Positions 14,414-37,031 of a DNA stretch of 64,000 nucleotides are shown here, piece by piece (position 1 is the stretch's first letter; the number at the start of each line of letters is the position of its first letter). Both the position numbers and the translations under genes were made by a program. Where the stretch lies: contig CAVUPH010000010.1 in assembly GCA_963743305.1 (NCBI GenBank), positions 96,001-160,000 on the forward strand, written 5' to 3'. The stretch comes from an uncultured delta proteobacterium. Its GTDB lineage: Bacteria; Desulfobacterota; RBG-13-43-22. A model generated the notes under the pieces. The model worked only from the letters and a program-made list of their open reading frames with translations, ran no database searches and was not told the origin of the DNA.

Positions 14414-17400
14414 TCAGACAACAAGCAGGCTCGTGGAGGCCGTCGCCCCAAGTGCTGTTGGGGGAGGATTCTTAAGGGGAGGAGAAGCAACGAACACTTG
14501 GCGAACTTTTTCGGCTAAGGTCTCCGGCGAAAAGGGCTTCTCGATGAAAGCTAAGCCCGGAGTAAGAACTCCCTGTTGGACGATTGCATTATTCGAGTAG
14601 CCGGACATATAAAGGACCTTGATACCCGGTCTGAAAGAAAGGATTTGATCGGCCAACTCACGGCCGTTTAGACCCGGCATGACCACATCGGTCAGCAGAA
14701 GGTCGATTTTCTCCCCGTATTCCCGGGTAATTTTTAAGGCGGGTTCACCCCCGGGAGCTTCGATGACCGTATACCCATATTGCTTCAGGGCTTCGCTGGT
14801 CAGGTTGCGGACGAGTTCATTATCTTCCACAATTAGAATGGTTTCCGAACCTTGAAGCAGATTCGGTGAATGGTGATCGCTTTCCTTGTGGGCCGATTTC
14901 CCCTCGGCCTGGGGCAAAAATATTTGAAACGACGTTCCGCATTCCGGCTGGCTGTCTACCCAGATATAGCCCCCACTTTGCTTAATGATACCGTAAACCG
15001 TGGATAAACCCAGGCCGGTTCCTTTCCCTAACTCCTTGGTGGTAAAGAAAGGTTCAAATAAATGGGATCTGGTTTCCAGGTCCATTCCGGTGCCCGTATC
15101 CCTGACTTCCAGCAAAACATAAGGACCGGGTTGCAGACTGACTCCTTTTTTGCGGGCATAGGCCTGATCCAAGACGACGTTAGCCGTTTCAATCGTTATT
15201 TTCCCGCCCCGGACCATAGCATCCCGGGCATTGACCACCAGATTCATCAAGACCTGGCCCATTTGATTCGGATCTACCTTAACCCGAAAAAGGCCGGATT
15301 CCAAATGGGTTTCCAGTTCGATATCTTCCCCGATCAGTCGTTGGAGCATCTTTTTTAGGTCGTTCACTATCAGGTTTAAATCCAAAACCTTGGGTTGCAG
15401 CATTTGTTTCCGGCTGAAAGCCAGCAGTTGTTGGGTCAAAGAGGCGGCCCTCTTTCCGGCCTTTTTGATTTCCTCCACTTTGCCGATCAGCGGGTGGTCC
15501 CGGTTCAAGCTTAATAGAATGAGGTCGGCATAGCCAATGATCCCGGTCAGCATGTTATTAAAGTCGTGGGCCACTCCCCCGGCCAACCGGCCGATAGCCT
15601 CCATTTTTTGGGATTGCCGCAACTGATCTTCTAATTTCTTTTTTTCCTCTTCCACCCACAGTCGTTCCAGGGCATGGGCGAAGATTTCTCCGATGATGGT
15701 TAATAACGTTACGATTTCATTTGGCCAGTCTCTTTTCTCGCCGGCCGAATCAAAACCCAGGAATCCGATCAGGTTTCCGCCATAGACCATGGGAACGCAG
15801 AGGAGGGATTTAAGGCCCCGGGATGAAAAGGCACTCTTTTCCGCCTCGGCTTCCGGGGGTAACTGAGCGACATCGGGGATCGAGACCACTTCTTGCCGCT
15901 TGATAATATTATAGAACCAGGGGAGGTCCGGCAGGGAGGATTCCGCCAACATGTCCTGAGAGCCGGGGAGGCCTTCCGCACACCAAAGATGGGTCTTCTC
16001 GACTCGGCTGCCGGAATCGATAAAACGGAAAATAAAGCTGCGATCCGTTCGGGCGAAGTTCCCGATCTGTTTCAACGCCAGGCTGATTTCCGGATTGATA
16101 TCCTCGGAGGCCAAGTTGATAAAGTGGGTGGAGATGGAGGTAATCAGTTTTTCCAGTTCCACGCGGTACTGAAGGGCCTCTTCGGCCAATTGCCGGTCGG
16201 TGATATCCTTGAAAGTCCCCACCAGGCCGATCACCTTTCCTTCGGCATCCAGGTTAGGCGCGGCGCTAAGGCTGAAATAGCGTTCACTGCCATTTTGATG
16301 GAGGATGGTCCCGGTCAAATCTCGGACGGTTTTTTTCTGATCCCGGGTTTCCTTAAAGATCTCTTTGTATCGAGGAATCTCCTCTGGTTTGACGAACTCA
16401 ATAAAGAAATGGCCGATCACTTCCTCCGTCGGATGGCCCAAAATCCTTTCCCAGGCCGGGTTGACATAGGTGAAAGCCCCGTCGATTCCGATCGTATAGA
16501 TGATATCCGGCGAGTTGGAACTAAGCGAACGAAACCGTTCTTCGCTCTCCTGAATTTTTTTATAAGAAATGGCGTTATTGATGCTGATGGCGATCTGGGG
16601 AGCGATGCCCAAGAGGAGGTTCAAATCGCTTTGGTTTAATTTGCGTCCCGCTTTGGGGTTATCCACCAGCAGGATTCCCAGAGATTCCCCCTTGTAGACA
16701 ATGGGCACGCTGATGAAGGACCGGGTCTCCATGCGGTAAACAAATTCCAGACTCTTGGGGGAGATATCCTGTTTGATCTTTGAGACGTCATCAATCAAAA
16801 AAGGGGTTTGGTTTTTAAAGGTTAAAACGGCCACCCCTTTGGATTGGGGATTATCAAGACGGAAGGACAACTTGCTTAAGTAATCATTTTCTTTATCGGA
16901 ATATCCGTAGCCGACCGAAAAGGTCAGGTGTTTTTTCCCTTTGTCCGCCATCATGATCATGCCGCGGTTAAAGTCCAGTCGTTTTTCCAAGGCCTCCATG
17001 ATATATTTAAGCAGTCGATCAATATCCAGGATCATGGAGATGACCTGGCCTATTTCCTGGATGAGGAGTGCCCCGTTGTATCGGAAATTAACTTGCTCTA
17101 AAGCCTGTTGGGCGTCCTGACTTTGGGAGGTTATGGCCTCCAGAAGATCTTTTTTTTCCAGGTCTTGGTGTATAGAAACACCCCCACATTCAATAAAGTT
17201 GGAACAAGTAACAATTCAGCCCAAAGCGTTGGAGGAAACATCAAAAAAGAACCGACCGCGAATAAGGCACTTCCCAGGAACAGATAACGATTTAAGATTT
17301 TCCACTTATAGGCGGATGCGCGTTTAAGGGAAATAATGTACCGGCAACACTCGCCGCCCTGGTGAATGCATTCGGGATGATCAATGGTTGCGAATTGTCT

Positions 17401-17880
17401 GGTGTAAAATTTGGAAATGGCCTCTAGCATCCCTATCCGATTATCGCAAGTGTAAGAACTTTCCTTGATGCCCGGCTTGGACATTGCTAAAAATTCGACG
17501 GTATGAGGGCCGAGCTTTCGGGTTTTAAAATCAGTGGCCTTAGTTATATTTTCGGCAAATTTTTCTATCAGGGAATAGGCTAGGGGCGCGGTTAAGAACC
17601 CCAGGCCATATTGTCTAATGAAACCAAAGGATTCTGAGGAGTGGGTGAACCTTCCCACTTCACGGGAGATATTGGGGTTTTTTGTTTTTTCTGTCAGGAT
17701 TTCATGAAATTGATCCAATTGTGTCTGGGTGAACCAATGCCCCCCATCCTCCACTTCGAGAATCGTCATCCCGGCATAATCCAACATCTCACTGATGGAG
17801 ATATCGGGATAGTATTTCCGGAGGAAATCAATGTAGGTTTTTACGATCCGGCTACTATAAAGGGGGGTATTTTCATTCAC
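14414..17880 (-). CDS. Hybrid sensor kinase: V4R-like N-terminal domain, 2 TM, GAF-PAS-GAF, HisKA, HATPase, REC; frameshift near 17160
   Basis: ORFs 17131-17880 and 14414-17035 join if one base is restored (..TKT-LEKKDLLEAITSQ..GALLIQEIGQVISMILDID); HPECIHQGGECCRY motif; AGGVAHDFNN, GKGTGLGL, LLTDVVMP. Confidence 0.85.
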
Positions 17881-18202
17881 CGTTTCAATATCCCAGGGAA
17901 ATATGAAGGATAGCGGTAATTGTTAGAGTATTTTCCAGAATAACCTTTTTTCATTTAGCCCATGCATTGCTATGACATCGGAAGGAGAGCAAAAGGCGCA
18001 ACCTCGAGCGCTTTTGGATCTCCAAAGTCGAAAATCTACTTGGTATTAAAGAGTTACATGGATAATCGGTCGAAGGCCGATAAAAAGTCAAGAACAATTT
18101 TTAAAGGAAATAGCCGTACTCCTCCTTGAGGGGCATCGTCGGTTTTTAATTCAATCCTGGTGGTTTGGTGTTTGGTGGCTTCCTCACCTTGCCCTTCCCG
18201 GC

Positions 18203-18502
18203 ATGTTCATTTGGGGAGCGGTGGGGAATTATCTGTACTATCTTCAAGTCCAAAAAAAAATTTTGGATTATAGAAAGCAGACGAATGGAGGCTTGCTTAT
18301 TAAGCCGTTAAATGAGTTAGGGGGGGTAAACAGCTGGGTTTGGGTATTGGGTCTTATCGTCAGCTTCATTTTCTTAGCGGGTTTTGGTTTAAGTGCGATG
18401 ATGCTCTACCGATTCTTGACCCGAGGATATTTAAACGTTCAAGATTACGTAGAAATAGGATTTTCATCGGGGGGTAGTTTTTGGTTAAATCCAACGCTAT
18501 GA
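18203..18502 (+). pseudogene. Small membrane protein or fragment, DUF2628-like C-terminal half
   Basis: GNYLYY...KKI...GGVN followed by a TM helix; no clear intact N-terminus. Confidence 0.35.
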
Positions 18503-18692
18503 AGACCTCGACCTTTCCCGGAGCTTCATTCCCGTGAAAATTTTGCTCTAAGAAGAATCTGGGGTACGAAGATACGGGCTCATTTTGAAACGCTCCCCAA
18601 GAATCTGATCTATTTAGGCATGACCGAAAGGAGACTTCTCCCTAAACTCTTGCAAAAAATAGATAATCTTCCAAAGCGTAGAATAGGGGAGG

Positions 18693-20369
18693 GTGTCAAT
18701 TATGGATGCCATCATTATTGCGGACGCTGCGTCAGAGAGCGTTTCCGCAACAAATCAAATGAAGCTGACTATCGGTGGGCAGGTATCGACCATTCAAACG
18801 GTCAAAAATTTTCTGGATAATCATGGGCGTGTAGTTCATCCCATAATTGGAGATGGGGTGTCCAGTTGGGGGTCGTCTTTGAAGTTGAACGGCCTCTACC
18901 TTTATAGTTATTTGTCAGGACAGGGATTTGACGTCCAGTTGGTAGATAGTTACTTCGAGGAAAAAGAAAAATTTATTGAAATGCTTAAGCATTCTCCAAA
19001 GGCGGTAGTGATCTCGACTACCTTCATAATTAGCAAAAAGACACTGGAATACCTTGTCCGTGATATCAGGACTGTGGCCCCCGGTATTTTTATCATCGCC
19101 GGTGGCCAGTTTGTGCATCTTTCAAGCAGAATCAGGGAGAGGCAGAAGTCAGATAACCCTATAATGGATATATTTGACAACGATTGTCTTTTCCTCGATG
19201 AGAAGAACGAACCTTCCGTGGATCTTTATATTATCAGCTCCAGTGGAGAAGAAATACTTTCCCAGGCACTGACAATGCTTAGGAAAAAAGGGAAAGTGGA
19301 AGGGCTTCCCAACACCGCTACGTACCAAAGGAAGAAGTACTCCATAGGCAGCAGAGTAGAGGAAAGGGTAAAGGTGGGGGGGATCACTGTGGACTGGAGG
19401 AGAATGCCTGGAGAATTTTTTCAATCCGGGGTTGTTCCACTTCAAGCCAGCTACGGATGTCCTTATAATTGCGCCTTTTGTAATTTTATGAAAGATAGAC
19501 GCCTAATGGGCGTGAAACCGATTGAGGACTTGATTGAGGAATTAAAGATAGTTCAAGAGAGAGGCGCTAGATATGTGTGGTTTGCCGATGACAACTTTCG
19601 GTTGGGGAGAAACGATTTGGAGAGAGTTTGCCAAAAATTTCTTGATTGTGGGATAAACGTGAAGTGGAAAAGTTTCATACGGCCAGGCGCAATGAAAGGC
19701 ATGGACATGGGGATTCTAAAGGCCTCCGGGTGTGTTGAGGTCCAGTTCGGACTTGAGTCGGCTGATCGCTCCATGCTTAAAAGGATGAATAAGAAAGCGA
19801 ACCCGGATCTTTATGCTGAAGTAATAGAAAGGGTATTGAGGGCAGGCATCAATTGCTCTTGTTATTTTATATTCGGCTTCCCCGGAGAGACAGAAAAAAC
19901 GGTCAAGCGGACCCTTGAATTCATTAAAGGCCTCGAGCATCCAGAATTGGATGGTTGTATTTCTTTTTCGATGTTTCCCTTTATTATCGCTCCGTTAAGT
20001 TCTATGTCAGAACCAAAGAGTGCACAGAAGTACGGGCTAAAAGGAAAGAACATGTGCCAGTGGCAGCATCACACGATGAATTCTAAAGAAGCTACGGATC
20101 TTGCTACAAGGGCCTTTTTCGAACTCGAGACTGCTGGGATCATCTACAGTGGTGACAATCTTGACATGTTGTTCGAACTCGACCCTCGGAAAAGGAAAAA
20201 GTTCAATGCCATAAGGCAAGATATGGCCAAGCTGGCGGCAAAGGGGTTATTGAAAGAAATGGACATGTTTGAAGCGTTTGGAAAGAACCTGTTGGAATCG
20301 ACAACCTCCTATTCCCATTCCTCGCTGCCGGTCAGTACCGTCCGTTTCAGCGGCTGGACCGTGCGATAG
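18693..20369 (+). CDS. B12-binding (class B-like) radical SAM protein
   Basis: VVISTTF, IIAGG, ASYGCPYNCAFC, FADDNF, GLESAD, FIFGFPGET; visibly lower GC than flanks; start may be ATG 18702. Confidence 0.88.
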   Translation: MSIMDAIIIADAASESVSATNQMKLTIGGQVSTIQTVKNFLDNHGRVVHPIIGDGVSSWGSSLKLNGLYLYSYLSGQGFDVQLVDSYFEEKEKFIEMLKHSPKAVVISTTFIISKKTLEYLVRDIRTVAPGIFIIAGGQFVHLSSRIRERQKSDNPIMDIFDNDCLFLDEKNEPSVDLYIISSSGEEILSQALTMLRKKGKVEGLPNTATYQRKKYSIGSRVEERVKVGGITVDWRRMPGEFFQSGVVPLQASYGCPYNCAFCNFMKDRRLMGVKPIEDLIEELKIVQERGARYVWFADDNFRLGRNDLERVCQKFLDCGINVKWKSFIRPGAMKGMDMGILKASGCVEVQFGLESADRSMLKRMNKKANPDLYAEVIERVLRAGINCSCYFIFGFPGETEKTVKRTLEFIKGLEHPELDGCISFSMFPFIIAPLSSMSEPKSAQKYGLKGKNMCQWQHHTMNSKEATDLATRAFFELETAGIIYSGDNLDMLFELDPRKRKKFNAIRQDMAKLAAKGLLKEMDMFEAFGKNLLESTTSYSHSSLPVSTVRFSGWTVR

Positions 20370-22936
20370 ACCTGTCCAGGGGCCTTGACTTCCCCGGCCA
20401 CGGTTAGAAGATGCTCCTGGATAGCTATCCCGAAGAGGCGTTCGTTCTCTTCCAGATAAGGCCGGATGAGTTCCCAGTCTTTATCGGTAAAAGGCGCCAT
20501 TTCACCTCCGTTGAGCTGTTCGGGAATAATCTTATGGTCCGGGTCGCGGACGAAAATGGCTCCCCCGGAAGCCAGGGAAAAAAGGTTGGAGCCCGGGTAA
20601 GGGGTATCCTGGGGGATGATTTGCCCCTGGGTTTCCACGGTCAGGCCGTTTAAGATAACGAATCCCCCTCCCTGATGGGGATCTCCGGCCATGAAGGATT
20701 CGGCCAGGAAGTCGAGGGCCGTACCGTTGATGATTACTTTAGGGCGCCCAACGGCATTGATCAGCGGGCGTCCGGCGGCGTTGCCCAGCACATAGACCTC
20801 CCCGCCTTTGGCCCCGTATAAAAAAGTCTGGCCCACATCGCCATAAACCACCAGTTTTCCGGATTTGAGGATTTGCCCCAACTGGTCCTGGGCGTTGCCG
20901 TGGACGTAGATTTCCATTCCGTCCATGCCGGAACCCAGGTAATCCCCGGAACTCCCGTAGGCATCAATCCGAACCCCCTGGGTATCCGGGCCCAGACCGT
21001 TGCCCAAGAAGCGCTGCCCGCGGAACCCAAAACCTATAAATCGTTTCCAGCCCAGTTCATAGGCCTTGACCAGCAGCCGGGCATCGCATTCTTCCCCTTC
21101 GGGAGGGAATTTTTCGGCATGGATGACCAGCACCATTTCTTTGCCCCTGGGGGCCCGAAGTTGGTGGCGGTGGTCATAATCGATCCGCAGATAGGTTTTT
21201 CCCTGGGACTCGTGGATTAGGGGTATCTCCAGAAAAATCCGGTCCAGAGCTTCCAGGACCATTTGCAGGATCGAGCGGCGCCGTTTAGAGCCGCTGGGAT
21301 AGCGTTGATCCAGGACCAGGGTCAGCAGTTCCAGGACCTGGGGTTTCAATTTTTCCGCGCGAGCCAATTCCACCAGATAACGGATCCAGGAACCCAGGCG
21401 GCGATAATCGCTCTCGGCCAAAAATGACTTCCAGTCGTTGAACATTCCTGGAATGGGGCCCGAGGTTAACCCTTCTTTAAGCTTCTTCAGAATCCCGGCC
21501 TCCAGCCCGTCATCGGCCATCGGGATCCTAAAATCGTAGGGTTGCCGGTCTTGGGGGACCGTGATCTCCCGGCCGAACTTGTCGTTGCAGGTGAGCTCGA
21601 GGGCGCCTGGGGCTTTTTCCTGGACCGAAAAGATAAACGCCCCGCCGTCGGTGTAGCTTCCTCCCCGGGCGTTCCAATAGCGGTCAGCCACAGTTCCAAA
21701 CCGGGGGTCCTCCCGGGCCAGGCTCTGGAGGGTGGCGTCAATGGCCTGTTTTTCCGAACAGATGAGCCCGATTTCCACCTCCCCTTTTTGTAGGGCAAAG
21801 ACCTGGGGACGCAGCATAGCGGTGTCGGTAATCCCGATCAACTGATATTTCCGTTGGCCGGGCATGTTCCGGGCAATAATAAAGAACCAGGGACCATCCG
21901 GGGAACCATGGATCTGGGTAGCCTGGATCTGACGATAAACCTTTTGTTTTTCGGGTGACAACTGATCGAAGTCCAATTCCGTAGTGGGGGCCAGGGACTC
22001 GATAATGTATTCCAGAGGATACCCATAGACCCGGTTTAACAAATCGAAAACCTGGACCGAAACTTCGGTATCGGTCAGAAACAGGGGGACCACGTTCCGC
22101 TGAAAAAGATATTCACTGACGGAATAGTAATTGGCAAAATCGCCGTTATGGACCAAGGCTTCGTCCATCCCGATAAAGGGATGGGCCCCACCCGGGTGCC
22201 AGACCCTACCTTTGGTTGGATAACGCTGGTGGGCGATCCAGACATGGGCCTTAAAATCTTCCAGACGATAATACTGGGTTACCTGTTCAGCGTAACCGAC
22301 GATTTTCAGAATCATCATGTTCCGACCATGGGACAAGACAAAAGCCCGTTTGTCCCCCAGGGAACTGTAGTAACGCTGATTAAGTTGAAAGGAGTTCTGG
22401 TAGATGAATTCCTCCTCAACTTTTCTGGCCGAAAGCTTGTCCAGACGGCGCTCTTTTTGAAAACGGGCCAGCACTTCGGGCCGGACGCGAACGAAATAGC
22501 GCTTGACCGCCGGGGGTTCCAATTCCAGACCGGGCACGTCCCGGTAGTCGTCCACGGTGGGCAGAAAAGCCTCGTGATCCACCCGGAAGCAGGGGCGGAT
22601 AAATTGTGCCTCCAATTCGGGCAGTACGGTTTTATCCAGCAGGGCAATCTGGTAAAGGAAATCCCCATCCAGGGTGCCCTGGTCCACCCCCAGCTTGGAA
22701 GCTTCCAGCCCCACGGCGGCGATACCTCCGCCTTTACCATTGCCGCGGTTGTGCATCTGCACCGAGGGTTCGAATATATGACGGCCACTAACCGGAATGT
22801 TGCAGGCGAAACCGGTGACCCCGCATCCGCCTTCTTCGGCCTCCGGCCGACGGGGTAAACGCCGTGCCGGATCAAGTTTTTCCAATAAATGAGCCCGCGA
22901 ATGAATCAGGGCCTGTGCGCTTGACTGATAGTTCAT
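20309..22936 (-). CDS. Split glutamate synthase: class II glutamine amidotransferase fused to GXGXG domain
   Basis: EEGG-CGV (propeptide then Ntn Cys), HNRG, IAHQRYPT, AHPF, VHNGD, TDTE; C-terminal GSSGDYLGSGM, GDVGQTFLYGAKGG, FLAESFMAG. Confidence 0.88.
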   Translation of the reverse strand: MNYQSSAQALIHSRAHLLEKLDPARRLPRRPEAEEGGCGVTGFACNIPVSGRHIFEPSVQMHNRGNGKGGGIAAVGLEASKLGVDQGTLDGDFLYQIALLDKTVLPELEAQFIRPCFRVDHEAFLPTVDDYRDVPGLELEPPAVKRYFVRVRPEVLARFQKERRLDKLSARKVEEEFIYQNSFQLNQRYYSSLGDKRAFVLSHGRNMMILKIVGYAEQVTQYYRLEDFKAHVWIAHQRYPTKGRVWHPGGAHPFIGMDEALVHNGDFANYYSVSEYLFQRNVVPLFLTDTEVSVQVFDLLNRVYGYPLEYIIESLAPTTELDFDQLSPEKQKVYRQIQATQIHGSPDGPWFFIIARNMPGQRKYQLIGITDTAMLRPQVFALQKGEVEIGLICSEKQAIDATLQSLAREDPRFGTVADRYWNARGGSYTDGGAFIFSVQEKAPGALELTCNDKFGREITVPQDRQPYDFRIPMADDGLEAGILKKLKEGLTSGPIPGMFNDWKSFLAESDYRRLGSWIRYLVELARAEKLKPQVLELLTLVLDQRYPSGSKRRRSILQMVLEALDRIFLEIPLIHESQGKTYLRIDYDHRHQLRAPRGKEMVLVIHAEKFPPEGEECDARLLVKAYELGWKRFIGFGFRGQRFLGNGLGPDTQGVRIDAYGSSGDYLGSGMDGMEIYVHGNAQDQLGQILKSGKLVVYGDVGQTFLYGAKGGEVYVLGNAAGRPLINAVGRPKVIINGTALDFLAESFMAGDPHQGGGFVILNGLTVETQGQIIPQDTPYPGSNLFSLASGGAIFVRDPDHKIIPEQLNGGEMAPFTDKDWELIRPYLEENERLFGIAIQEHLLTVAGEVKAPGQVYRTVQPLKRTVLTGSEEWE

Positions 22937-22960
22937 GGTCCTTCCCGATAGTTTTTAAGT

Positions 22961-24475
22961 TTAGTCGATAACTCCGGTCAGCTCTTCCGGACGAATATAA
23001 TCCAAATGCACCAATAAGTCCCAGCGACCCACCAGGTCCTGGATACGGGTCAATCCCAACCGGCGGAGCAAAAAACGCCATTGTTTCATCCAGGCGGTAT
23101 AGGAATTTATAATCCGCTGGGTACCCCAATCTTGGGTGATCAGCTTGGACAATTCGGGATCGGTGGTGGCGATCCCCCGGGCGCAGCCGCGGCCGGATTC
23201 GCAGTTGTGGCAACGCAGGCATTCCAGGGACACCATGTCCAGCGTGCCCAAACAGATGCCATTGGCGCCCAGGGCGATGATTTTGGCGGCATCGTAAGCC
23301 GTCCGGATCCCTCCGCTGGCAATGATGGTGATTTTATCCCTGATCCCTTCGTCCTTCAGGAACCGGTGAACTTTGGGCACGGCGTACTCCAGGGGCATGG
23401 CGATATTTTTCTTGGCAATGTCCGGGGCGGCGCCGGTTCCGCCATAACTGCCGTCCAACTGCAGAATATGGGCCCCGGCAAAATAGCTGCCCACGGCCAC
23501 CATGTCCACGTCGTTGGGGGTAGACACTTTGACGGAAACCAAAGCTCGGGGATTGATCTCTTTGATCCAATCGATGTGCTTTTTATGGTCCTCTACCGAG
23601 TACACGCTATGAAAGGGAAAAGGAGAAAAAAGGGAACTTCCGACCACGGCCTCCCGCATCCGGGCCACCTCCGGGGTGACTTTATCCCCCAGCAGGTGGC
23701 CGCCCAACCCCGGTTTAGCGCCCTGGGCGTATTTAAACTCCACAATGCGGACCCGTTTAATGGTTTCTTCCCGAACCCCGAAGAGCCCGGTGGCCACCTG
23801 GGTAATGACGTGATCGTCATAAGGGATTAAGTCGTCCGGGAATCCCCCTTCACCGGTACAGCAAAAGGTTCCCCAGGCGGTTGCGGCCCGAACCCGGGAA
23901 AGCATGGAATGGATGCTGACGGAGCCGAAGGACATACCGCCCAAATAAAAGGGAACGGGCAAAGCGACTTGGGGGCGCTCATCCCCGGTCCGGTTGAGCT
24001 CGATACCCAGGGAGATATCTTCCTCCGGAATCTCCCGGGGGGGAACGACGGGGAGCCGAAACCGGATTTTGTCGAAGCCGCCGCCCGAATCTCCGGTTTT
24101 ATAGTTGATATCCTGATAAGGGATCTCCCCGGTTTCGGCCATGTACCAGGTGCTGGCCAATAAATCGGAAGTCCAGCGCTTATCCCCCAGAACCTCAAAA
24201 GAAGGGTTGAGATTCAGGCGAATGGCGTCCCGAGGACAGCGGGACAAACAATAGAATTCATTTTTTTGGCAGGAAGGACCCAGACAGCGATATTCCTGGG
24301 CCACCCGGGGGCGCCGGCTGCCTTTCTGATAAACGCCGTAAGGACAAAGGGTAACACAGAGACCGCAATTATCGCAGTCCGGGGTGATGGTGATCCGGTA
24401 CTTGCTTAAGGCCTGTCGGAAGCGGGAAGGCGTCCGTTTTACTTCAGGGGGAATAAACGGAACGGGGGTGTTCAT
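22961..24475 (-). CDS. Split glutamate synthase FMN-binding subunit with N-terminal ferredoxin domain (catalytic motifs intact)
   Basis: CDNCGLCVTLCP, GMSFGS, TGEGG, QVATGLFGV, EFKYAQGAKPGLGGHL, GGTGAAP, SGGIR, CLRCHNC...C. Confidence 0.9.
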   Translation of the reverse strand: MNTPVPFIPPEVKRTPSRFRQALSKYRITITPDCDNCGLCVTLCPYGVYQKGSRRPRVAQEYRCLGPSCQKNEFYCLSRCPRDAIRLNLNPSFEVLGDKRWTSDLLASTWYMAETGEIPYQDINYKTGDSGGGFDKIRFRLPVVPPREIPEEDISLGIELNRTGDERPQVALPVPFYLGGMSFGSVSIHSMLSRVRAATAWGTFCCTGEGGFPDDLIPYDDHVITQVATGLFGVREETIKRVRIVEFKYAQGAKPGLGGHLLGDKVTPEVARMREAVVGSSLFSPFPFHSVYSVEDHKKHIDWIKEINPRALVSVKVSTPNDVDMVAVGSYFAGAHILQLDGSYGGTGAAPDIAKKNIAMPLEYAVPKVHRFLKDEGIRDKITIIASGGIRTAYDAAKIIALGANGICLGTLDMVSLECLRCHNCESGRGCARGIATTDPELSKLITQDWGTQRIINSYTAWMKQWRFLLRRLGLTRIQDLVGRWDLLVHLDYIRPEELTGVID

Positions 24476-25860
24476 GAGGCAACTCCTTTTCCCAGGGAGG
24501 CAAAAACATCCGCCTCCAGGTCTTCAAAAAACATGGCCCGGCCCATCTCCCCCCGCAGGCGACGGGCTTCCCGAATTCCCATGGCTCCCATGATCTCCAG
24601 CAGTTGGTTATGCCAGCCGGCCATTAAATTCCTGATCCGGGCTTCCCCCCGAGGCGGATAGATCTGATCGATAGTCACCGGGCAGGGGATGCCGGCGGCG
24701 CAGCGACGGCAAACCCGGCATTCCAGGGCGATCAACAACGGGATGTCCACGGCCACGGCATCGGCCCCGCAGAGGATCAGTTTGGCCAGGTGTTCCGCCA
24801 TGGAGATTCCGCCCCCGGCAATGACGGTAATCTGGTCGCGGACTCCAAAGCGAACCAAGTGGAGGTGGATTTCTTTGATCCGGTCTTTGATATACCAGGG
24901 ATCCTCTCCCTGTTCCCGCCCCAGTTCATTGGCTATGAAATGGAGGATTTCTATCCCGTCTTGGGCCAGTTCCAAGGCCCGTTCGCTGGAACGGGCCGAG
25001 AGGGGTAACCGGACCGCGATGACCGCTTGGGCGTTGATAGCCTTCAATTTCCGCAGGCGTTCCAGGACCCGGGGGCCGTCGGGGATTTCGATCAGACGCA
25101 ATTTCTTGATCAATTCCGGGTCCACGGTTTCCACCGCCTGATTGATATAGAGCAGGACATGGTCCAGGTATTGTTTCAGGCTGGGTTCCCATTCCTGCTG
25201 GGAGATCACCGCAAAGGAGCCGATGCCCCGGGCCCCCCGAAGCAGGGTATGATTGATGCGGTCCCGGGGAGGCGACCAGGGCAGGAGATCGAAAATAATC
25301 GGCAAGGGGATTTCCACCAGGGATTGGGTCGGTGACAGCAGGTTTCCCCGGTCATCGAACTCCAGCGACATCCATTTGCGCCCCAGATCCACTTGGGTAC
25401 TGATATACTCCCGGCCGTGAATCCCGTCCCGGGTCGGCCGGACAATTTCCGACATATCCGTCCACATGGCATCAAAGCCCGGACCGGAGAAAGTCCCTCC
25501 ATACCCGGCCCCGGAAACGGGGATCCTTCCGGTTTCCGCCTGAAACCATAAGGTGGAGATGATTTCGGGGGTCCAATAGGCATCCCCCAGCTTCTTATAT
25601 TCCGGGTTCAGGGATTTGTGGATCAACCGATTGGGGCAGTTCTGGACACAGCGGAAACAGTCTTTACAGAGGCTGTCCAGAGAATCCACCATCAGGCGGG
25701 CATCGAGATTTTTTTTGTCATAAACGCCGTAGACGCAATCCCGCTTCACGCAGCGAGGGCATTTGAGGCAGCCTTCTTCCCAGGCGATCACCCCGGAACG
25801 GGTGATGGTCGGGTAGCGGTTGGGGACGTTGGCCGTTTGAATATGGTACTTCGCTGGCAT
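24472..25860 (-). CDS. Glutamate synthase FMN-domain paralog with ferredoxin domain, catalytic motifs degenerate
   Basis: CLKCPRC, CKDCFRCVQNCP, AETGRIP, GFD, AGGGI, GADAV, CRVCRRC...CP kept; MSFG, GEGG, KxxQGAKPG and GGTG absent. Confidence 0.82.
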   Translation of the reverse strand: MPAKYHIQTANVPNRYPTITRSGVIAWEEGCLKCPRCVKRDCVYGVYDKKNLDARLMVDSLDSLCKDCFRCVQNCPNRLIHKSLNPEYKKLGDAYWTPEIISTLWFQAETGRIPVSGAGYGGTFSGPGFDAMWTDMSEIVRPTRDGIHGREYISTQVDLGRKWMSLEFDDRGNLLSPTQSLVEIPLPIIFDLLPWSPPRDRINHTLLRGARGIGSFAVISQQEWEPSLKQYLDHVLLYINQAVETVDPELIKKLRLIEIPDGPRVLERLRKLKAINAQAVIAVRLPLSARSSERALELAQDGIEILHFIANELGREQGEDPWYIKDRIKEIHLHLVRFGVRDQITVIAGGGISMAEHLAKLILCGADAVAVDIPLLIALECRVCRRCAAGIPCPVTIDQIYPPRGEARIRNLMAGWHNQLLEIMGAMGIREARRLRGEMGRAMFFEDLEADVFASLGKGVAS

Positions 25861-25918
25861 AACTTAATCCTTTAAAAGCGGTCTTTATTATAGCCAAAAA
25901 TATTGCAAATATTTTTGG

Positions 25919-26842
25919 CTAGAGGTTCGGTCGGGGGAAAAGGCCCGCGCCTTCCACTATCGGGGGAACGACCTCCTCCCATTCAATGGCCATGATATGG
26001 ACCCCGTGCACGCCCTTCATTTCTTTCAGGGCCTGGATGGTTTCGATACTTATCTTCACGCCCTCCCGACGCTGTTCCTTGGCCGGAACGGCCTTCATCC
26101 GTCGAATGACTTCCTCGGGGATATCCATTCCGGCCACCTTACTATTCATATATTCGGCCATCTTGGACGATTTCAAGGGGGTGATCCCGCCTAAAATATA
26201 GACCTCACGGTCCAGATTGCGCTCCCGCACTTTATCCATCCACTCGGAGAAGCGGGCCAGGTTATAGATGCATTGGGTTTGGATGAACTCCGCCCCGGCC
26301 TTAACCTTTTTGGCCAACCGCAGGACCCGGTACAAAAAAGGGTCGGCAAAGGGATTGGCCGCCGCTCCGATAAACAGGTCCGGGGACACGGTCAGAGGCT
26401 CTCCTCCCAGGACCTGGCCCTGGTCCCGCATCTGCCGGGCGGTGCTGATCAACTGGAGGGAGTCCAGATCGAAGACTCCTCTGGCCTGGGGCTGATTGCC
26501 GAAGGATTGATGGTCCCCGCTCAGGCAGAGGACATTGCGAATTCCCAAGGCCGAGGCCCCCAGGAGGTCCGACTGCAGGGCGATTCGATTCCGGTCCCGG
26601 GTGACCATCTGCAGCACCGGGTCCAGCCCGGCCTGGCGAAGCAGGGTGCAGGCCGCCAGGCTGCTGAGGCGCACCACCCCGGTTTGGTTATCGGTGACGT
26701 TGACGCTGTCCGCGTATCCGGCCAGCAGTTTTCCTTTTTTAAGGATGGCCTCGGGGTCGGCGCCTTTAGGAGGCCCGCACTCGGCGGTGACGGCGAAATG
26801 ATCGGCGGCTAAGACTTTTTTTAACTGGCTTTCCGTTTTCAA
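25919..26842 (-). CDS. metF: Methylenetetrahydrofolate reductase
   Basis: VTAECGPPKG, NVTDN, RDRNRIALQSDL, LCLSGD, KVKAGAEFIQTQ; TTG start overlaps the metV stop (listed ORF over-extended to 27127). Confidence 0.92.
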   Translation of the reverse strand: MKTESQLKKVLAADHFAVTAECGPPKGADPEAILKKGKLLAGYADSVNVTDNQTGVVRLSSLAACTLLRQAGLDPVLQMVTRDRNRIALQSDLLGASALGIRNVLCLSGDHQSFGNQPQARGVFDLDSLQLISTARQMRDQGQVLGGEPLTVSPDLFIGAAANPFADPFLYRVLRLAKKVKAGAEFIQTQCIYNLARFSEWMDKVRERNLDREVYILGGITPLKSSKMAEYMNSKVAGMDIPEEVIRRMKAVPAKEQRREGVKISIETIQALKEMKGVHGVHIMAIEWEEVVPPIVEGAGLFPRPNL

Positions 26843-27507
26843 TTCCTTTGGTCCTCCCTGATGATTTTTCTGGGACCGGTTCCCTGTTGACGCGACCAGT
26901 CCGCGGGGGGGTAAACCGTTTCCAGTTGCGAAAGTCGCCCCGATTCTTCCAGGCGGTCCACAATGAGCTGCCAGGCGCAGGGGACTTCGGGGTCCACTTC
27001 GCATTGGCCGTTCTGAGAGCCCCCGCACGGTCCGTTGAATAATTGCTTGGCACAGCGGGTAATGGGGCAGATATCCCCGAAAAGATGCACCCGGCAGTGG
27101 CCGCAGCCGCGGCAATTCTCCAGCCAAAGTCCCGGCTCCTTGGTTTGTCCTAAAAAGGTGGTGTTCAGGGCCGGCAGAATAGGGATTTTGGGAAAGACTT
27201 CGGCTACGGCTTGTACCCCGGCCCCGCAGGCCAAAGACAGGACGGCCTCGTACTGATCTACCAGACCGGTCAGTTGATCGATGAACTCATAAACGCACTG
27301 GCGTTCCAGGGTCATTTCCCTGGTTTCCAAATCCCGGTTGGTCATGCGGGCTTCCATGCGCAGGGCGGAGGCCAACAACCCGGTTTCCCGCTCGCCGCCG
27401 GCGGCGCATTCGGCCACGCAACTGCCGCAGCCGACCACCAAGATTTTTTGGTAGGGGGAAATCATGGCCAGGATCTCTTCCATGGGTTTTCGTTCGGCGG
27501 TAATCAT
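26839..27507 (-). CDS. metV: MTHFR small Fe-S subunit MetV
   Basis: GCGSCVAEC..GG, RQC, ACGAG, C.GCG.C, CPITRCAK.L.NGPCGG, CAW. Confidence 0.9.
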   Translation of the reverse strand: MITAERKPMEEILAMISPYQKILVVGCGSCVAECAAGGERETGLLASALRMEARMTNRDLETREMTLERQCVYEFIDQLTGLVDQYEAVLSLACGAGVQAVAEVFPKIPILPALNTTFLGQTKEPGLWLENCRGCGHCRVHLFGDICPITRCAKQLFNGPCGGSQNGQCEVDPEVPCAWQLIVDRLEESGRLSQLETVYPPADWSRQQGTGPRKIIREDQRN

Positions 27508-27545
27508 GCTCGGGCTCCAATCAAAAAGATAAAATAGTAAAAAAA

Positions 27546-27965
27546 CTACAACCGGCGCAGGAGCGAATGCCCCTTAACCGGTATCCGGGTCAGGAGTTCC
27601 CGGGTGAGTTGATCGATGGCTTGGGGCAGGGGCGGGCGGGTCATTACCAAAACCAGTCGCTCGGGATCCATTCCGATTTCCTGAATCAACTTTTGGGCGT
27701 ATTGAATCCGCTTCCGGGCGCGGGTGTTGCCTTGCTGGTAGCGGCAGGCTTTTTCAGGGCAGGTGATCAGAAAGACCAGATCCGCCCCCGACTCCATGGC
27801 CCGCAGGAAATGAAGCGATTCAATGCGTCCGCTGCAGGGGAGTGGGAAAAATTTGATTCGCGGGCCCAGTTCTTTTTCTATCACCCGGCGGTTAAGGTCT
27901 TGAGCCGGATCGATCTGCTGGCAGAAAAAAATATCGATTTTCATATCGGACGGATTAGTACTCAT
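27546..27965 (-). CDS. mvhD: MvhD/FlpD-type [2Fe-2S] protein
   Basis: FFC, LPCSGR, GAD.V...C....CRY..GN, IGMDPERL. Confidence 0.85.
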   Translation of the reverse strand: MSTNPSDMKIDIFFCQQIDPAQDLNRRVIEKELGPRIKFFPLPCSGRIESLHFLRAMESGADLVFLITCPEKACRYQQGNTRARKRIQYAQKLIQEIGMDPERLVLVMTRPPLPQAIDQLTRELLTRIPVKGHSLLRRL

Positions 27966-28115
27966 AAAAAATACCCATCAAAAATTATTTATAATTAAAT
28001 AGTCGCTTTATTTATTTTGATCAAAAAGGAAAACTTATAATTAATCATATTTTTTAATAAAAAGCAATAAAAAATTGTCTTTATCCTGAGGGCCAAAGGT
28101 TCAAGGCAGCTAGAG

Positions 28116-29444
28116 CTATAAAATCGGAAGATATTTTTCAAGCTCATAGCGGCTAACATGGGTCCGGTAACGATCCCACTCAATTTCTTTATTCTCGATA
28201 AATTTTTCAAAAATATGGTCTCCGAGGGCCTCCCGGACCAGGGTGCTTTTCTTCACTTCCTGAAGGGCCTCATAGAGATTTCCGGGAAGCGAGTGAATTC
28301 CTCGGGCCTCCCGTTCTTTCTGATTCATTTCATAAATATCTTCTTCAATGGGGTCCGGGATGGGGTACTTGCCCTCGATACCGGCCATTCCGGCGGCCAA
28401 CTGGACGGCGAAAGAAAGATAAGGATTGCAGGCCGGATCGGGCGAGCGGAATTCAATCCGGGTGGCCTGTTCTTTGCCCGGCTTATACATGGGGACCCGG
28501 ATCATGGTGGACCGGTTGCGCCGGGCCCAGGAAACGTAGACCGGGGCCTCGTAACCCGGCACCAGGCGTTTATAGGAATTGACCCATTGGTTGTTGATGG
28601 CCGTCATCTCCCGGGCATGGCGCATCAGCCCGGCGATATAGCCCTTGGCAGTCTCTGAAAGATGAAAAGGATCCCCTGGATTAAAAAAGGCATTTTTAGA
28701 GCCCAGAAACAAGGACTGATGGGTGTGCATGCCGCTGCCGTTGATCCCGAATACGGGTTTGGGCATGAAGGTGGCGTACACCCCATGGCTGCGGGCGATC
28801 TCCTTGACCACGATCCGGTAGGTCATGGTCATGTCGGCCATCTTCAGTCCTTCGGCGTAGCGGAGATCGATTTCATGCTGGCTGGGAGCGACCTCATGGT
28901 GGCTGTACTCTACTCGGATATCCATGGACTGGAGGGCGAAAATCGTGTCTCGCCGCAGGTCACTTCCCAAGTCTATCGGACGGGAGTCAAAGTACCCGCC
29001 CGCGTCCAGAAACCGGGGTTCCCCGTTGTCGGCGAAATAAAAATACTCCAGTTCGGGCCCCACAAAAAACGTATAGCCTTTTTCCATGGCCCGGGCCAGC
29101 AGGCGCTTAAAGGCGAAGCGGGTGTCGCCCGGATAGGGCGTGCCATCGGGCTGCAGAATATCACAGAATAGACGGGCCACCGGCCTCTCTCCCTGACGCC
29201 AGGGGACTAATTGAAAGGTGGTCGGGTCTGGTTTAGCGATCATATCGGACTCTTCGATGCGGGCAAACCCTTCGATCGAAGAGCCGTCAAAGCCCATACC
29301 CTCGATCATCCCCTCCTCCAATTCCGAGGGGGTGACGGCAAAACTTTTCAAAAGGCCCAGGATATCGGTAAACCAGAACTGAATGAAACTGATGTTTTTG
29401 TCCCGAACCAGGCGAAGCACATCTTCGGGTGTTTGACTAAGCAT
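28116..29444 (-). CDS. glnA: Glutamine synthetase, GSI-alpha-like paralog
   Basis: [60 protein letters not shown]; AAGGAGG RBS before ATG 29444. Confidence 0.92.
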   Translation of the reverse strand: MLSQTPEDVLRLVRDKNISFIQFWFTDILGLLKSFAVTPSELEEGMIEGMGFDGSSIEGFARIEESDMIAKPDPTTFQLVPWRQGERPVARLFCDILQPDGTPYPGDTRFAFKRLLARAMEKGYTFFVGPELEYFYFADNGEPRFLDAGGYFDSRPIDLGSDLRRDTIFALQSMDIRVEYSHHEVAPSQHEIDLRYAEGLKMADMTMTYRIVVKEIARSHGVYATFMPKPVFGINGSGMHTHQSLFLGSKNAFFNPGDPFHLSETAKGYIAGLMRHAREMTAINNQWVNSYKRLVPGYEAPVYVSWARRNRSTMIRVPMYKPGKEQATRIEFRSPDPACNPYLSFAVQLAAGMAGIEGKYPIPDPIEEDIYEMNQKEREARGIHSLPGNLYEALQEVKKSTLVREALGDHIFEKFIENKEIEWDRYRTHVSRYELEKYLPIL

Positions 29445-29488
29445 GCGGTAGTCCTCCTTAGGCACTAAATTTTTTCCCGATAAGGAGG

Positions 29489-32424
29489 TCATATTAGCTC
29501 ACCGGATACCGAGGATCTACCTTTTTTACGGGTCGGATTGAAAATCTTCTGAAAATGGAGGCGAATATTTTGGGTCACCTTGCGATAATGCCGGTAAAGA
29601 TCCCAGGAAAGGATCGGCACCCGAGGTGCCTGGCCCAAGCCCATTAAATCCAGTTTTTCCAGTCGCTTGATCTCTTCCGGGAGGTAGGTCCGCGGCTCTT
29701 CCCGCCGGTCCAGGAGGAGCTGTAACCCGTGATCCAGGGAGCACAAAAACTGATGTCCGTCCCGCAAAATTAGATAGGTCTCTTCCGTCAGGCCCCCCGT
29801 ATCCCGCAGGGCCTGTAAAACTTTCAAGGTGTTGGTTTGGCGGACCTCGGGAACCTGGAGGCCGTGGAGCCGCTGTAAATATTGGGTGATAAATTCAACG
29901 TCGCTCATGCCCCCATAGCCCAATTTGGGGTTGACCCGTTCGCTCCCTTCCCCGGACCGCTCCACTTCCATACGTTTGCGAAAATACGCCATTTCTTCCC
30001 GAATACCCGCGGGGGCAGGCGTTTGATAGAGAAGCCTCTGAATTTCCTCCCGGATTTTCTGGGCCAGGGGTTCCGGCCCGGCGATCACCCGGGCCTTGAG
30101 CAGCATTTGCAGTTCCCAATTCTGGGCCTGGTGACGGTAATACTCCCGAAAAGATTCCAGGGAAACGACCAGGGGCCCAAAGGTCCCGGAAGGCCTTAAC
30201 CGGGTATCCACCCCATAACCCGGACCTTCCTTGAGGGGCAGAGAGATATATGAAATCAAGCGCTGGGCCAACCGGACCAGATATTCACTCCAGGTTATCC
30301 AGGGACGAGACTCTTTTGACCGAGTGGCCCGCGAAGCGGATTGGGCCTCATCGGGAAAGACGGTCTTTAAGGAATAAACGAACATCAGGTCCAGGTCGGA
30401 GGCATAGCCGAGGTCCTGACCTCCCAATTTCCCCAACCCTAGAATGCAGAAAGGGGCCAAGGGGCGGGCCTTGGAAGATCGGGGATAAATGGGATGAATC
30501 ACTTCCCGACTGAGGGTATCTTCGGCGACCCGGGCGGTTTCCACAATCACTTGGTCCGCCAATAGAGACAATCGTTCGGAGGCCTCGGAGGGATTCAGCC
30601 TCCCGGCCATTTCCTCCAGGGCGATTTCCAGAAAATGCTCGTTTTTCCAGCGGCGCAGCCGGGAGAGGTTGTCTTCCAGGTCCGGGTGCGCCGGTCGTTT
30701 AACCGGCAAGGGACTGGGCCAGTCGGAATAAAAGGAAAAGCCGCTTTCCCGGCGCAGGGCCAGACGATCAACCAGCTCGGGATTCTGGATAAAGAACCGG
30801 GACAGCAGGGTGCTTCGGGCAAACAAATGGAGGATTTCCGTTAACAGGGTGGTCCGTTCCAGGAGCATGGACAATATCCCGGTCCGCCCGCCGAGGCTCC
30901 TCAAAAAAAGGTCCAAAAAATGAAGGGTTTGATCCGGGTCAGGGGTTTGAATAACCCCGTGGAGCAGCGCGGGAACTATTCGGATCAACAATTCTTTTTC
31001 TCTTTGGGCCCGTTGGGAAGAGGCCATGCGTTTTTTCCAAGAAACGAGAATTTCCCGGGCTGCGGCCCATTGGTGAAACCCCAAGGCCGTAAGCGAGGTT
31101 TTCCAATCTTCGGGTTCTTGCGGCTCAAAGAGACGCGAAACTTCCCGGGGAGAAACCGAGTACGGCGCCAGCAGCAGTTGAGCGAAGGTCTGTTGTACCC
31201 CTTCCCGGATCTGGGCCAGTTCGCGAAGCCAGCTTTCCAGGCTCAAGGGTTCCGTTGATTTCCGTCGAGGCATGGACCGGGCCACCTGGTGCAAGGGTCC
31301 GGGTTCCTTGGGCAGGCTATGGGTTTGTCGTTGGTGACGCATTTGGAGACGATGTTCCAAGGTTCGCAAATAGGTATAAGCCTTTACCAGGTGGCGATAT
31401 TCTTCTTTGGGCAGCAGACGGGTCTGATACAGCCGGCGCAGGGCCGCCAAGGTATTTCTTTCTCTAATCGCCGGGAGTCGGCCCCCAAAAACCAACTGCA
31501 GGGCCTGGACGATAAATTCGATTTCCCGAATCCCCCCGGGTCCGAGTTTAATGTTGTTGTCGGCCAGCAGATGGGAACGGGCTTCCTGGAGTATTCGTTC
31601 CTTAAGTCCCCGGATATCCTCCAGAACACTGTAGTCCATTACCCGGCGGTAAACGACCGGTTGGATTCCCTCCAGAAAACGTCGTCCCAAGTCCAGGTTT
31701 CCGGCCACCACTCGGGATTTGATCAAGGCCATCCGTTCCCAGGTCTTAGCCTCCGACTGGTAATATTCCAAGGCATTTTCCAGGCTGAGGGCCAACTCGG
31801 AATCTTTCCCGCCGGGACGGAGGTTTAAATCCACCCGAAAAACCAAATCGCCGTTCATCAGGGCGGCCATGGACTGGGTGATACGCCGGGTCAGGAGTTG
31901 GTAAAATTCCCTTTGCTCGCCAAAAGAAAAGGGAAGGTCCGCCAGGGGTTGATAAAGGAAGATCAGATCGATGTCGGAACTGAAATTCAGTTCCTCCCCC
32001 CGAATTTTCCCAACCCCAGAACTACCAGCCCTTTTTGTTCCAGCAAAATAGGGTTCCAGCTTTTTCCTTTGACCAGTTCCCGGTAGCTAAAGGCTGTGGC
32101 CATCTCCAAGCAAACTTGGGCCAGGTTGGTCAACTCCTGGGTACAGTCCCTTAAGGAAATCCGGCCTCCCAAGTCACGGGCGGCAATACGCAGGATCTCC
32201 GCCTGTTTGAAGCGCCGCAAGGAGAGGCCGAAGGCCTGAAAATCCTCCCGGCCGTCCAATTGATTCCGCAACATCTGGCCCAACTGGTTTCGAGACAACC
32301 GGGAATGGTATCCTTCCCGGAGAAAGATCTCCTCGGCCAACGAAGGCTGCTGCTGAAGGACCTGGCTCAGGTAAGGGGAAAAAAGCCGAATTTCATCTAA
32401 AAGGGACTGGCCATCGGGGGACAT
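29489..32424 (-). CDS. glnE: Bifunctional GS adenylyltransferase/removase; frameshift near 31995
   Basis: Two NT domains GLGKFGG(E)ELNFSSDIDL and GLGKLGGQDLGYASDLDL; VD..LRP.G twice; WERMALIK; KLG.GG; one G missing from a homopolymer joins the two ORFs. Confidence 0.9.
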
Positions 32425-32473
32425 GGTTTTTAATCAGCGGGTTCTGAACTGGTTAGGGGTTAACGTTGGGGAC

Positions 32474-32520: not shown

Positions 32521-32559
32521 GCCGATACGTTGACCTTTCTGCTCGTGCCTCAAGATCGT

Positions 32560-36677: not shown

Positions 36678-37031
<354 letters not shown>

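Follow-up and report, generated by a model that had tools for sequence, protein, structure and literature searches.

Why would a methylene-tetrahydrofolate (methylene-THF) reductase be encoded in one run of genes with a glutamate synthase, and from where would such a synthase receive its electrons? The question is raised by a 64,000-nt stretch of DNA (the window) on contig CAVUPH010000010.1 of an uncultured delta proteobacterium (assembly GCA_963743305.1), where the six minus-strand genes mvhD, metV, metF, fmnA, fmnB and gat lie within a nitrogen cluster. Nitrogen enters biomass mainly through glutamate synthase, the known forms of which use NAD(P)H (through GltD), ferredoxin or F420. Tentatively, and with somewhat less than even confidence, we read the six genes as encoding one nitrogen-assimilation enzyme, a split glutamine-dependent glutamate synthase in which an Fe-S chain would replace GltD and to which a working MetVF would be attached. 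A functional link between MvhD-MetVF and the split synthase is supported by the sequence comparisons presented here.

Coordinates are window positions, and contig numbers (C) refer to contigs of the window's genome (G000). The locus comprises the following features:

27546..27965, minus strand: mvhD, small [2Fe-2S]-type adaptor, probably of a glutamate-synthase-linked kind (Pfam FlpD, 80.5 bits)
26839..27507, minus strand: metV, Fe-S/zinc subunit of a MetVF-type methylene-THF reductase (Pfam DUF5981, 122.5 bits)
25919..26842, minus strand: metF, flavin subunit of methylene-THF reductase, predicted to be catalytically intact (Pfam MTHFR, 134 bits)
25861..25918, minus strand: metF-fmnA spacer of 58 nt, containing a copy of a dispersed palindromic repeat
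24472..25860, minus strand: fmnA, two 4-Cys motifs; Glu_synthase scores over the C-terminal third only (42 bits)
22961..24475, minus strand: fmnB, ferredoxin-like N-terminal head and full Glu_synthase domain (290.6 bits)
20309..22936, minus strand: gat, GATase-GXGXG fusion of 875 aa; GXGXG PF01493 56.2 bits (residues 641-809), GATase_6 23.9 bits, which falls under the Pfam cut-off of 27
27966..28115, minus strand: intergenic stretch between glnA and mvhD, AT-rich, presumed promoter or leader region

The initial annotation, made from the letters alone, had described six closely spaced co-oriented genes behind an AT-rich intergenic stretch, and all of them were placed as claimed. The gaps from mvhD to gat are, in order, 38 nt, an overlap, 58 nt, a 4-nt overlap and 24 nt. 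The intergenic stretch measures 150 nt, and the GC content of bin 27800-28099 is 0.363, compared with 0.55-0.63 within the genes. The metF start was taken as the TTG behind GGAGGA, which overlaps the metV stop; a 402-aa metF open reading frame (ORF) from the ORF list was set aside, as its start lies too far upstream.

A synthase split over three proteins

FmnB looks like an active catalytic subunit, with a flavin mononucleotide (FMN) site, a 2-oxoglutarate site and a Cys-rich loop. It aligns with residues 848-1169 of Azospirillum brasilense GltB, and the conserved blocks of the predicted FMN/2-oxoglutarate barrel (QGAKPGxGG, SPxPxH and GGTGA) are retained together with an Fe-S loop, C-x2-C-x2-C-x5-C, that holds four Cys where GltB has three.

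The glutaminase half would reside in gat. Its Cys38 stands in an EEGGCGVTGF...QMHNRGNGKGGG block, is present in all 60 orthologues shown (of 70 aligned) and is preceded by a variable leader of about 37 residues. In the glutaminase of glutamate synthase, leader cleavage exposes Cys1; the numbering of the two A. brasilense GltB entries differs by 36 residues, as would be expected if a leader of about this length were cleaved off. The protein gives weak GlmS/PurF-type matches, and its GXGXG part matches GltB 1272-1359 and FwdC. A PurF/N-terminal nucleophile (Ntn)-type glutaminase domain with a catalytic N-terminal Cys thus appears to be present, removal of the leader being a prediction, and the C terminus would form a GXGXG beta-helix domain.

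FmnA lacks QGAKPG and GGTGA, i.e. the FMN/2-oxoglutarate motifs, and keeps its Fe-S sites. It cannot be regarded as a relaxed pseudo-copy: in 45 orthologues with 43-75% identity to it, all eight ferredoxin-type Cys, the residues C381, C384 and C393 and a 22-residue block, T134-T155, are invariant. The predicted FmnA model (pLDDT confidence score 85.3) superposes on the GltB FMN domain (780-1190) with Z 26 and a root mean square deviation of 3.3-3.7 Å over 316-326 residues. Block T134-T155 is its least confident part (pLDDT 43-56), as might be expected of a segment that becomes ordered only on contact with a partner. FmnA was also considered as the missing GltB central domain and rejected in that role, as its profile match covers GltB 974-1161 and its model fits onto the FMN domain. 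For the central domain PF04898 itself, a search of the entire genome gave no match at E <= 1e-20.

In 4/52 loci, a single ORF of about 990 aa encodes both FmnA and FmnB, and each of the 120 longer database homologues listed (of 1050 found) likewise joins the two in one protein, which makes an FmnA-FmnB heterodimer very probable. Ferredoxin-like heads are present on both subunits. Complex prediction of FmnA with MvhD scored 0.30 (mark 0.32), which counts neither for nor against binding.

With GltBD of A. brasilense (PDB 1EA0, 2VDC and 6S6S), the mechanism of which is summarised in PMC8097209, the window synthase shares the Ntn glutaminase with an N-terminal Cys behind a leader, the FMN/2-oxoglutarate barrel with its Cys-rich Fe-S loop and the GXGXG beta-helix. 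Unlike GltBD, it is split into three proteins in another order (GATase fused to GXGXG), lacks PF04898, carries the enlarged Cys loop and the two ferredoxin-like heads, and adds a motif-less second synthase paralog; no GltD is encoded in the window, and MvhD and MetVF stand in its place. In the split "archaeal-type" glutamate synthases (PMC8097209), the glutaminase, GXGXG and the FMN domain with its ferredoxin-like head are each encoded by a gene of their own. In the window type, by comparison, a single 875-aa protein contains both GATase and GXGXG, the FMN subunit occurs as a duplicated pair, seemingly one catalytic and one non-catalytic copy, and MvhD and MetVF accompany the synthase. We know of no test of the electron supply of the archaeal split forms either.

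The F420-linked glutamate synthases of methanogens and ANME archaea provide a precedent for an exchanged electron-input module of a split synthase, with an FrhB-type F420 subunit beside the GltS subunits where the window has MvhD/MetVF (PMC9012536). The parts of the window locus (GltS domains, MetVF, MvhD) are known, and the electron supply would be built from parts otherwise known in methanogen and acetogen energy metabolism. For their combination (a synthase subunit present in two copies, one of them Fe-S-only; a fused GATase-GXGXG protein; an MvhD from a dedicated clade; and, where GltD would stand, MetVF with or without HdrCB-HdrL), no description or test was found in the literature searched, where supplementary gene-cluster tables could mention it.

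Conservation and distribution of the gene order

The association of the synthase genes with mvhD and metVF, put forward initially from this one locus, is conserved in relatives. Species-representative genomes were scanned, and 593 loci were confirmed; the 80 best of them, a selection that leans towards relatives of the query, were kept and typed by tblastn. After exclusion of 29 loci with less than 5300 nt upstream, 51 were counted. The exact six-gene order (type A) occurs in 23/51 loci, one of them L013, a relative that is 97-98% identical, and mvhD lies upstream in 47/51. Twelve of the 51 have mvhD-fmnA-fmnB-gat without metVF upstream, and in six of these (type C) metV-metF follow directly downstream. 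The orders mvhD-metF-fmnA (7/51) and mvhD-metV-fmnA (3/51) are also found. A metV or metF is present somewhere in 39/51 loci. The arrangement recurs far beyond chance, and numerous anaerobic bacteria share it.

Judged by record titles, these loci come from about ten phyla: Desulfobacterota, Nitrospirota, Chloroflexota, Actinomycetota, Planctomycetota, Acidobacteriota, Verrucomicrobiota, Armatimonadota, Poribacteria and Latescibacterota, together with ANME-1 archaea. Two ANME-1 contigs (L062 and L077) hold a relative at 61-62% identity. Homologues of gat number more than 7756, and identity at rank 120 is still 69%.

In one complete 2.5-Mb genome of the window's phylum (G045), the order at L096:7872-17261 is an NrpR-family gene (PF01995, 274.8 bits), a 190-aa polyferredoxin, mvhD, metV, metF, mvhD, fmnA, fmnB and gat. 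The cluster MetV is the sole MetV of this genome; the cluster MetF is weak (85 bits), and a canonical MetF is encoded elsewhere. In methanogens, NrpR is a 2-oxoglutarate-sensing nitrogen repressor, as stated in PMC9765008. In G237 and in the Actinomycetota genome of L056, the glt-linked MetV or MetF is the only one found and must therefore belong to the cell's methylene-THF reductase (MTHFR); acetyl-CoA synthase is present in both.

The distribution of the synthase within the window's phylum was assessed in 301 genomes at least 90% complete, with an FmnA threshold of E <= 1e-40. These figures are descriptive, since related genomes are not independent, and genes missing from draft genomes are given as not found rather than absent. 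FmnA was found in 88/301 genomes and the canonical GltB central domain in 63/301, the latter in 5/88 FmnA carriers and 58/213 non-carriers; 155 genomes had neither. We take this as a near-exclusive distribution, in which the FmnA cluster probably serves as the cell's glutamate synthase. Acetyl-CoA synthase was found in 203/301 genomes (75/88 carriers, 128/213 non-carriers) and MetV in 242/301 (87/88 and 155/213). The MetV overlap was read by hand, and MetV-FmnA adjacency was checked individually in ten genomes.

Among the 88 FmnA matches, one is a fragment and two weak ones lie inside ORFs of about 2530 aa (G093:C21:58276-59616 and G309:C74:19419-20765), where a region is 29-30% identical to FmnA over nearly its full length. 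These ORFs possibly encode giant fused glutamate-synthase-like proteins.

Three metatranscriptome runs covered small shares of the stretch (0.05-0.07), as contigs only and mostly 90-95% alike, so mostly from relatives. Contigs from these RNA libraries, at a likeness of at least 90%, bridge four of the five junctions (mvhD-metV, metV-metF, metF-fmnA and fmnB-gat). The bins near the fmnA-fmnB junction are almost without RNA cover, which proves nothing. Nor do such contigs prove a single transcript, as DNA may be present in the libraries.

The metF-fmnA junction is bridged by one 325-nt contig of a near-identical strain, in which window positions 25873-25919 are replaced by 4 nt, leaving a 15-nt spacer. 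In the window, this spacer holds a 12-3-12 palindrome belonging to a dispersed repeat, approximately CTAGCCAAAAATATTT-S-AAATATTTTTGGCT followed by TAATAAAAACCAC, with 40 half-site matches in the genome. The repeat occurs at 25873-25919 and at about 25 other places, e.g. C7:231960, C14:84803 and C30:20265. Since it is missing in the near-identical strain and relatives have metF-fmnA spacers of about 15-22 nt, the 58-nt gap reads as a recent insertion and not as an old operon boundary. In the same place, L013 has an additional hairpin insert, about 105 nt long.

Electron supply of the synthase

MvhD, MetV and MetF were compared with their relatives in the same and other genomes. The window MvhD is, by its position in a 66-row tree, of the glutamate-synthase-linked and not the Hdr-linked kind, with the reservation that support for the deepest split is 79% only. 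All 23 type-A MvhDs, the window's included, fall with the MvhDs that precede fmnA, and none falls on the Hdr side, where 13 MvhDs, including the genome's own three, cluster together (support 93). By this placement, the operon reads as a core of mvhD-fmnA-fmnB-gat with metV-metF inserted. The MvhD residues C44, C69 and C74 are invariant in 45/45 sequences.

The window MetV is 50-54% identical to the genome's three other MetV copies. The MetF residues E21, D110 and Q190 (window numbering), which we take to be E. coli Glu28, Asp120 and Gln183, are kept in 23/23 type-A and 6/6 type-C loci, rows covering less than 80% of MetF being excluded. With this triad conserved, MetF of the window type appears to be under selection for folate chemistry. 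In a 46-row MetF tree, the main type-A clade is sister to Hdr-linked MetFs of the window's and another genome (branch support 97%), and the glt-linked label needs at least four changes.

A close described counterpart is the type IV MTHFR of Moorella thermoacetica, MetFV-HdrCBA-MvhD, in which MetF, MetV and MvhD are likewise encoded together (Mock et al. 2014, summarised in PMC8760232); its second acceptor is still listed as unknown in the latter source. The window pairs MetV with a MetF that, to judge from its residues, has a working folate site. In contrast to the Moorella enzyme, no HdrA, HdrB or HdrC homologue is encoded in the window (E <= 1e-3), MvhD belongs to another clade of the 66-row tree, and a glutamate synthase is attached; ten-gene relatives of the operon do hold a full hdrC-hdrB-hdrA(L)-mvhD-metV set. 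The type II MetVF of Clostridium ljungdahlii and Eubacterium callanderi is also a MetF and MetV pair without an NAD(P)H site, for which reduced ferredoxin is the donor in vitro (PMC8760232). The window pair differs from it in being co-encoded with MvhD and a split glutamate synthase in a nitrogen island.

Most likely, the six products form a single nitrogen-regulated complex, in which electrons would reach the synthase FMN via MetVF, MvhD and FmnA. Removal of the gat leader would expose Cys38 for glutamine hydrolysis, and the ammonia would pass to FmnB, where 2-iminoglutarate would be reduced by FMN. Single electrons would return the FMN to its reduced state, travelling from the MetF flavin through MetV and the [2Fe-2S] cluster of the glutamate-synthase-specific MvhD and then over the ferredoxin-like heads and Cys-rich loops of the FmnB/FmnA heterodimer. 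Alternatively, reduced ferredoxin could be the donor, entering at MetV or at the ferredoxin-like heads. In this scheme we infer the binding of MetVF and MvhD to FmnAB, the direction of electron flow and the identity of the donor.

Methyl-THF oxidation is plausible but unproven as the source. It would be the most likely local donor because no two-electron entry site is encoded here other than the intact MetF and the synthase itself. MetVF stands on the input side of the chain wherever the gene order is informative and is tied to the chain in most lineages. Acetyl-CoA synthase is present in the window's genome, so methyl-THF would be available, and three other mvhD-metVF sets in the genome are Hdr-linked, so the fourth copy in the window looks dedicated. 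MetVF alone takes ferredoxin electrons in vitro (PMC8760232), so that its attachment to the synthase would add something for the oxidative direction only. A folate donor would thus explain why a fourth MetVF copy is retained in a nitrogen operon. The methylene/methyl-THF couple lies at about -200 mV and that of glutamine plus 2-oxoglutarate/2 glutamate at about -60 mV, as estimated from free energies, and transfer from methyl-THF to glutamate is thermodynamically possible overall.

The complete proposal is that methyl-THF electrons would reduce 2-iminoglutarate via MetF, MetV, MvhD and FmnA, and that the ten-gene relatives, docked to HdrCB-HdrL, would act as an electron-bifurcating synthase regenerating reduced ferredoxin from NAD(P)H. 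We hold it to be possible but rather doubtful. If true, anaerobes would possess in the synthase an integral high-potential electron sink for the most difficult step in oxidising methyl groups, and NAD(P)H and reduced ferredoxin would be spared during nitrogen assimilation. The claim that MetF-MetV-MvhD is the electron input of the synthase therefore survives in part: the link is borne out by synteny, the conserved MetF residues, the MvhD clade and the RNA-library contigs, and methyl-THF oxidation as the source is not established.

Several observations weigh against an enzyme fed by MetVF. The core occurs without any metV or metF in 12/51 loci (with 7.6 kb or more of flank downstream in seven of them) and without MvhD in three loci; the synthase must therefore have another electron entry. 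In the mvhD-metF-fmnA variants, D110 is kept in only 4/8 and Q190 in 4/8, so that folate turnover would not be needed there. No MvhD, MetV or MetF domain is fused to FmnA among the 120 longer homologues listed of 1050. The nitrogen-assimilation flux is small beside the catabolic one-carbon flux. Acetyl-CoA synthase was not found in 13/88 FmnA carriers (among them a complete genome), in 2/5 type-A genomes or in the complete genome G045, and methyl-THF would not be a bulk metabolite in such cells. Finally, the GltS FMN (-240 to -270 mV) and its cluster (-280 to -190 mV; PMC8097209) lie at or below the folate couple, which makes the first steps slightly uphill.

Further such points come from the Hdr genes and lead to the first alternative, in which synthase and MetVF are both electron consumers on a shared Fe-S scaffold of MvhD, FmnA and the ferredoxin-like heads. 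Reduced ferredoxin or, via MvhD, an HdrA/HdrL-type flavoprotein encoded elsewhere would feed this scaffold at low potential, no electrons would flow from folate to glutamate, and the ten-gene variants could be NAD(P)H-driven and possibly electron-bifurcating. Of 36 loci with sufficient flank downstream, nine have hdrC, hdrB, the gene for a 1500-aa HdrL, a second mvhD and metV behind the glt genes, and this HdrL consists of HdrA plus a GltD-like Fer4_20/Pyr_redox_2 module, an NAD(P)H domain. HdrA/HdrL-like genes are encoded elsewhere in 5/5 type-A genomes tested, and Hdr might act in trans; three Hdr-linked sets are found in the window's own genome, the nearest at a distance of 62 kb upstream. 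The existence of cores without MetVF and the polyferredoxin heading the G045 cluster fit this alternative as well, as do the known role of MvhD as an HdrA adaptor and the proposal that type IV MTHFR uses NADH, with its second acceptor unknown (PMC8760232). Against it stand the absence of Hdr genes from operon and window and the position of the window MvhD, with those of all 23 type-A loci, outside the Hdr side. A dedicated fourth MetVF in a nitrogen operon would also go unexplained, as MetVF alone takes ferredoxin electrons. We regard a shared low-potential input with two sinks as a real but less than likely possibility.

A second alternative is that a ferredoxin-type MTHFR and a ferredoxin-type split glutamate synthase are separate enzymes that are merely co-regulated, e.g. 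to supply methyl groups and glutamate during growth. The inserted repeat in the 58-nt spacer carries TATAAT, the two halves are nowhere fused among the listed FmnA homologues, their relative order varies (types A, B, C, D and E), and MetV is common in the phylum anyway. The association has, however, arisen or persisted in at least three MetF lineages and in many phyla, and an RNA-library contig crosses from metF to fmnA over the 15-nt spacer. In the Hdr-containing variants, the glt genes sit between metF and metV, an order that is hard to explain unless the products work together; types B and G place them there or between two mvhD genes, and two further orders were seen in individually examined genomes. 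The G045 cluster, moreover, holds a decayed MetF with the genome's sole MetV while the canonical MetF lies elsewhere. Mere neighbourhood is an improbable explanation.

The remaining alternative, also raised in the initial annotation, is an anaerobic analogue of the N-methylglutamate pathway, in which the Glt-like proteins would be an Mgs-type synthase and MetF would handle the released one-carbon unit. MgsABC are split GltB homologues that work with the glutamine synthetase (GS)-like GmaS, and the window resembles them in having three-part GltB homologues beside a GS gene, in a genome with six MTHFR homologues. It is nonetheless very improbable: the domains of the adjacent GS (Gln-synt_N and Gln-synt_C) are the ordinary ones, and its gene follows glnE, shows 64-76% identity to the glnA beside many other clusters and is internally deleted in L013, which keeps the six genes; GATase and GXGXG are fused and the FMN subunits have ferredoxin heads, where GmaS would be accompanied by three Mgs subunits encoded separately; the genes around the locus form a nif-amt-glnD-glnE island; and a gene set on C32 resembles the Gma/Mgs layout much better.

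To return to a synthase with its own MvhD-MetVF module, one-carbon and nitrogen metabolism would be coupled directly at the redox level if MetVF feeds it; if Hdr does, bifurcation could allow energy to be conserved in nitrogen assimilation. In both cases, the synthase is a testable partner for MvhD/MetVF modules, the physiological electron partners of which have been under question ever since the type IV enzyme of Moorella (PMC8760232).

Genomic surroundings of the locus

The genome is a 4.9-Mb assembly of 43 contigs with 90% completeness. That the unit sits inside a nitrogen cluster, as first described, was evident from the genes upstream on the same strand, which are glnA, glnE, a second and frame-broken glnA, glnD, a class-I amidotransferase gene, two ammonium transporter genes, nifB, three nitrogenase component-1-type genes and a gene for a NifA-like sigma-54 activator. 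The nearest of these are:

28116-29492, minus strand: glnA, Gln-synt_N and Gln-synt_C, directly upstream of mvhD
29489-31870, minus strand: glnE, Pfam GlnE and GlnD_UR_UTase, 793-aa ORF upstream of glnA

The absence of gltD and hdrABC that had been noted for the window holds for the window itself, where HdrC, HdrB and HdrL queries gave no tblastn match at E <= 1e-3 and no GltD homologue is encoded. It does not extend to the genome. An hdrC-hdrB-hdrL-mvhD-metV-metF set lies about 62 kb upstream on the same contig (C10:46039-54187), and two more Hdr-linked mvhD-metV-metF sets are at C26:87768-94314 and C8:51572-55218, so that HdrL or HdrA-like genes neighbour three of the genome's four mvhD-metV-metF sets. 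Outside the window, the genome also has at least five stand-alone GltD-like genes. "GltD-less", the earlier term for the synthase, is likewise true locally and has to be qualified by the GltD-like NAD(P)H domain of HdrL in other variants.

A second split set is encoded at C32:91700-97600 (L093:3708-9584). It comprises a GS-like protein (Gln-synt_N_2), a 299-aa GATase, a 234-aa GXGXG protein, a 419-aa FMN subunit without a ferredoxin head and a 409-aa Pyr_redox_2 protein. The layout would be either GlnT/Glx- or Gma/Mgs-like, or that of an NAD(P)H-type split glutamate synthase.

Scans for sigma-70 promoters and terminators over 20000-29700 gave counts at or below the shuffle level, with none in the two spacers. 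The sigma-54 consensus TGGCAC-N5-TTGCW, at up to two mismatches, had 27 matches against 22.9 expected, none of them upstream of mvhD or fmnA. A search of 19500-37500 against Rfam at E <= 1 returned a single sub-threshold match, inside a coding region, and none in 27966-28115. The only perfect sigma-54 match in the window is at 37086-37101 (-), about 345 nt upstream of glnD and downstream of the class-I amidotransferase gene.

The N-terminal 145 aa of GlnE are encoded by a separate ORF (31987-32424), 116 nt before the 793-aa glnE ORF, and the second glnA paralog (32560-33973, 40% identical) is split over two frames. In L013, the latter is a single tblastn segment and so appears unbroken. The splits in glnE and the second glnA are frameshifts or assembly errors. 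The first glnA is internally deleted in L013 by 1257 nt, a multiple of three (window 28208-29464 versus L013:4626-4635), and glnE and the six genes are still present there.

The genes downstream of the cluster are unrelated to it. At the 3' end of the cluster (17000-20300), GC content drops from about 0.57 to about 0.45, and this low-GC stretch contains an ORF without a Pfam match (17131-17880) and a convergent B12-binding radical-SAM gene (18693-20369).

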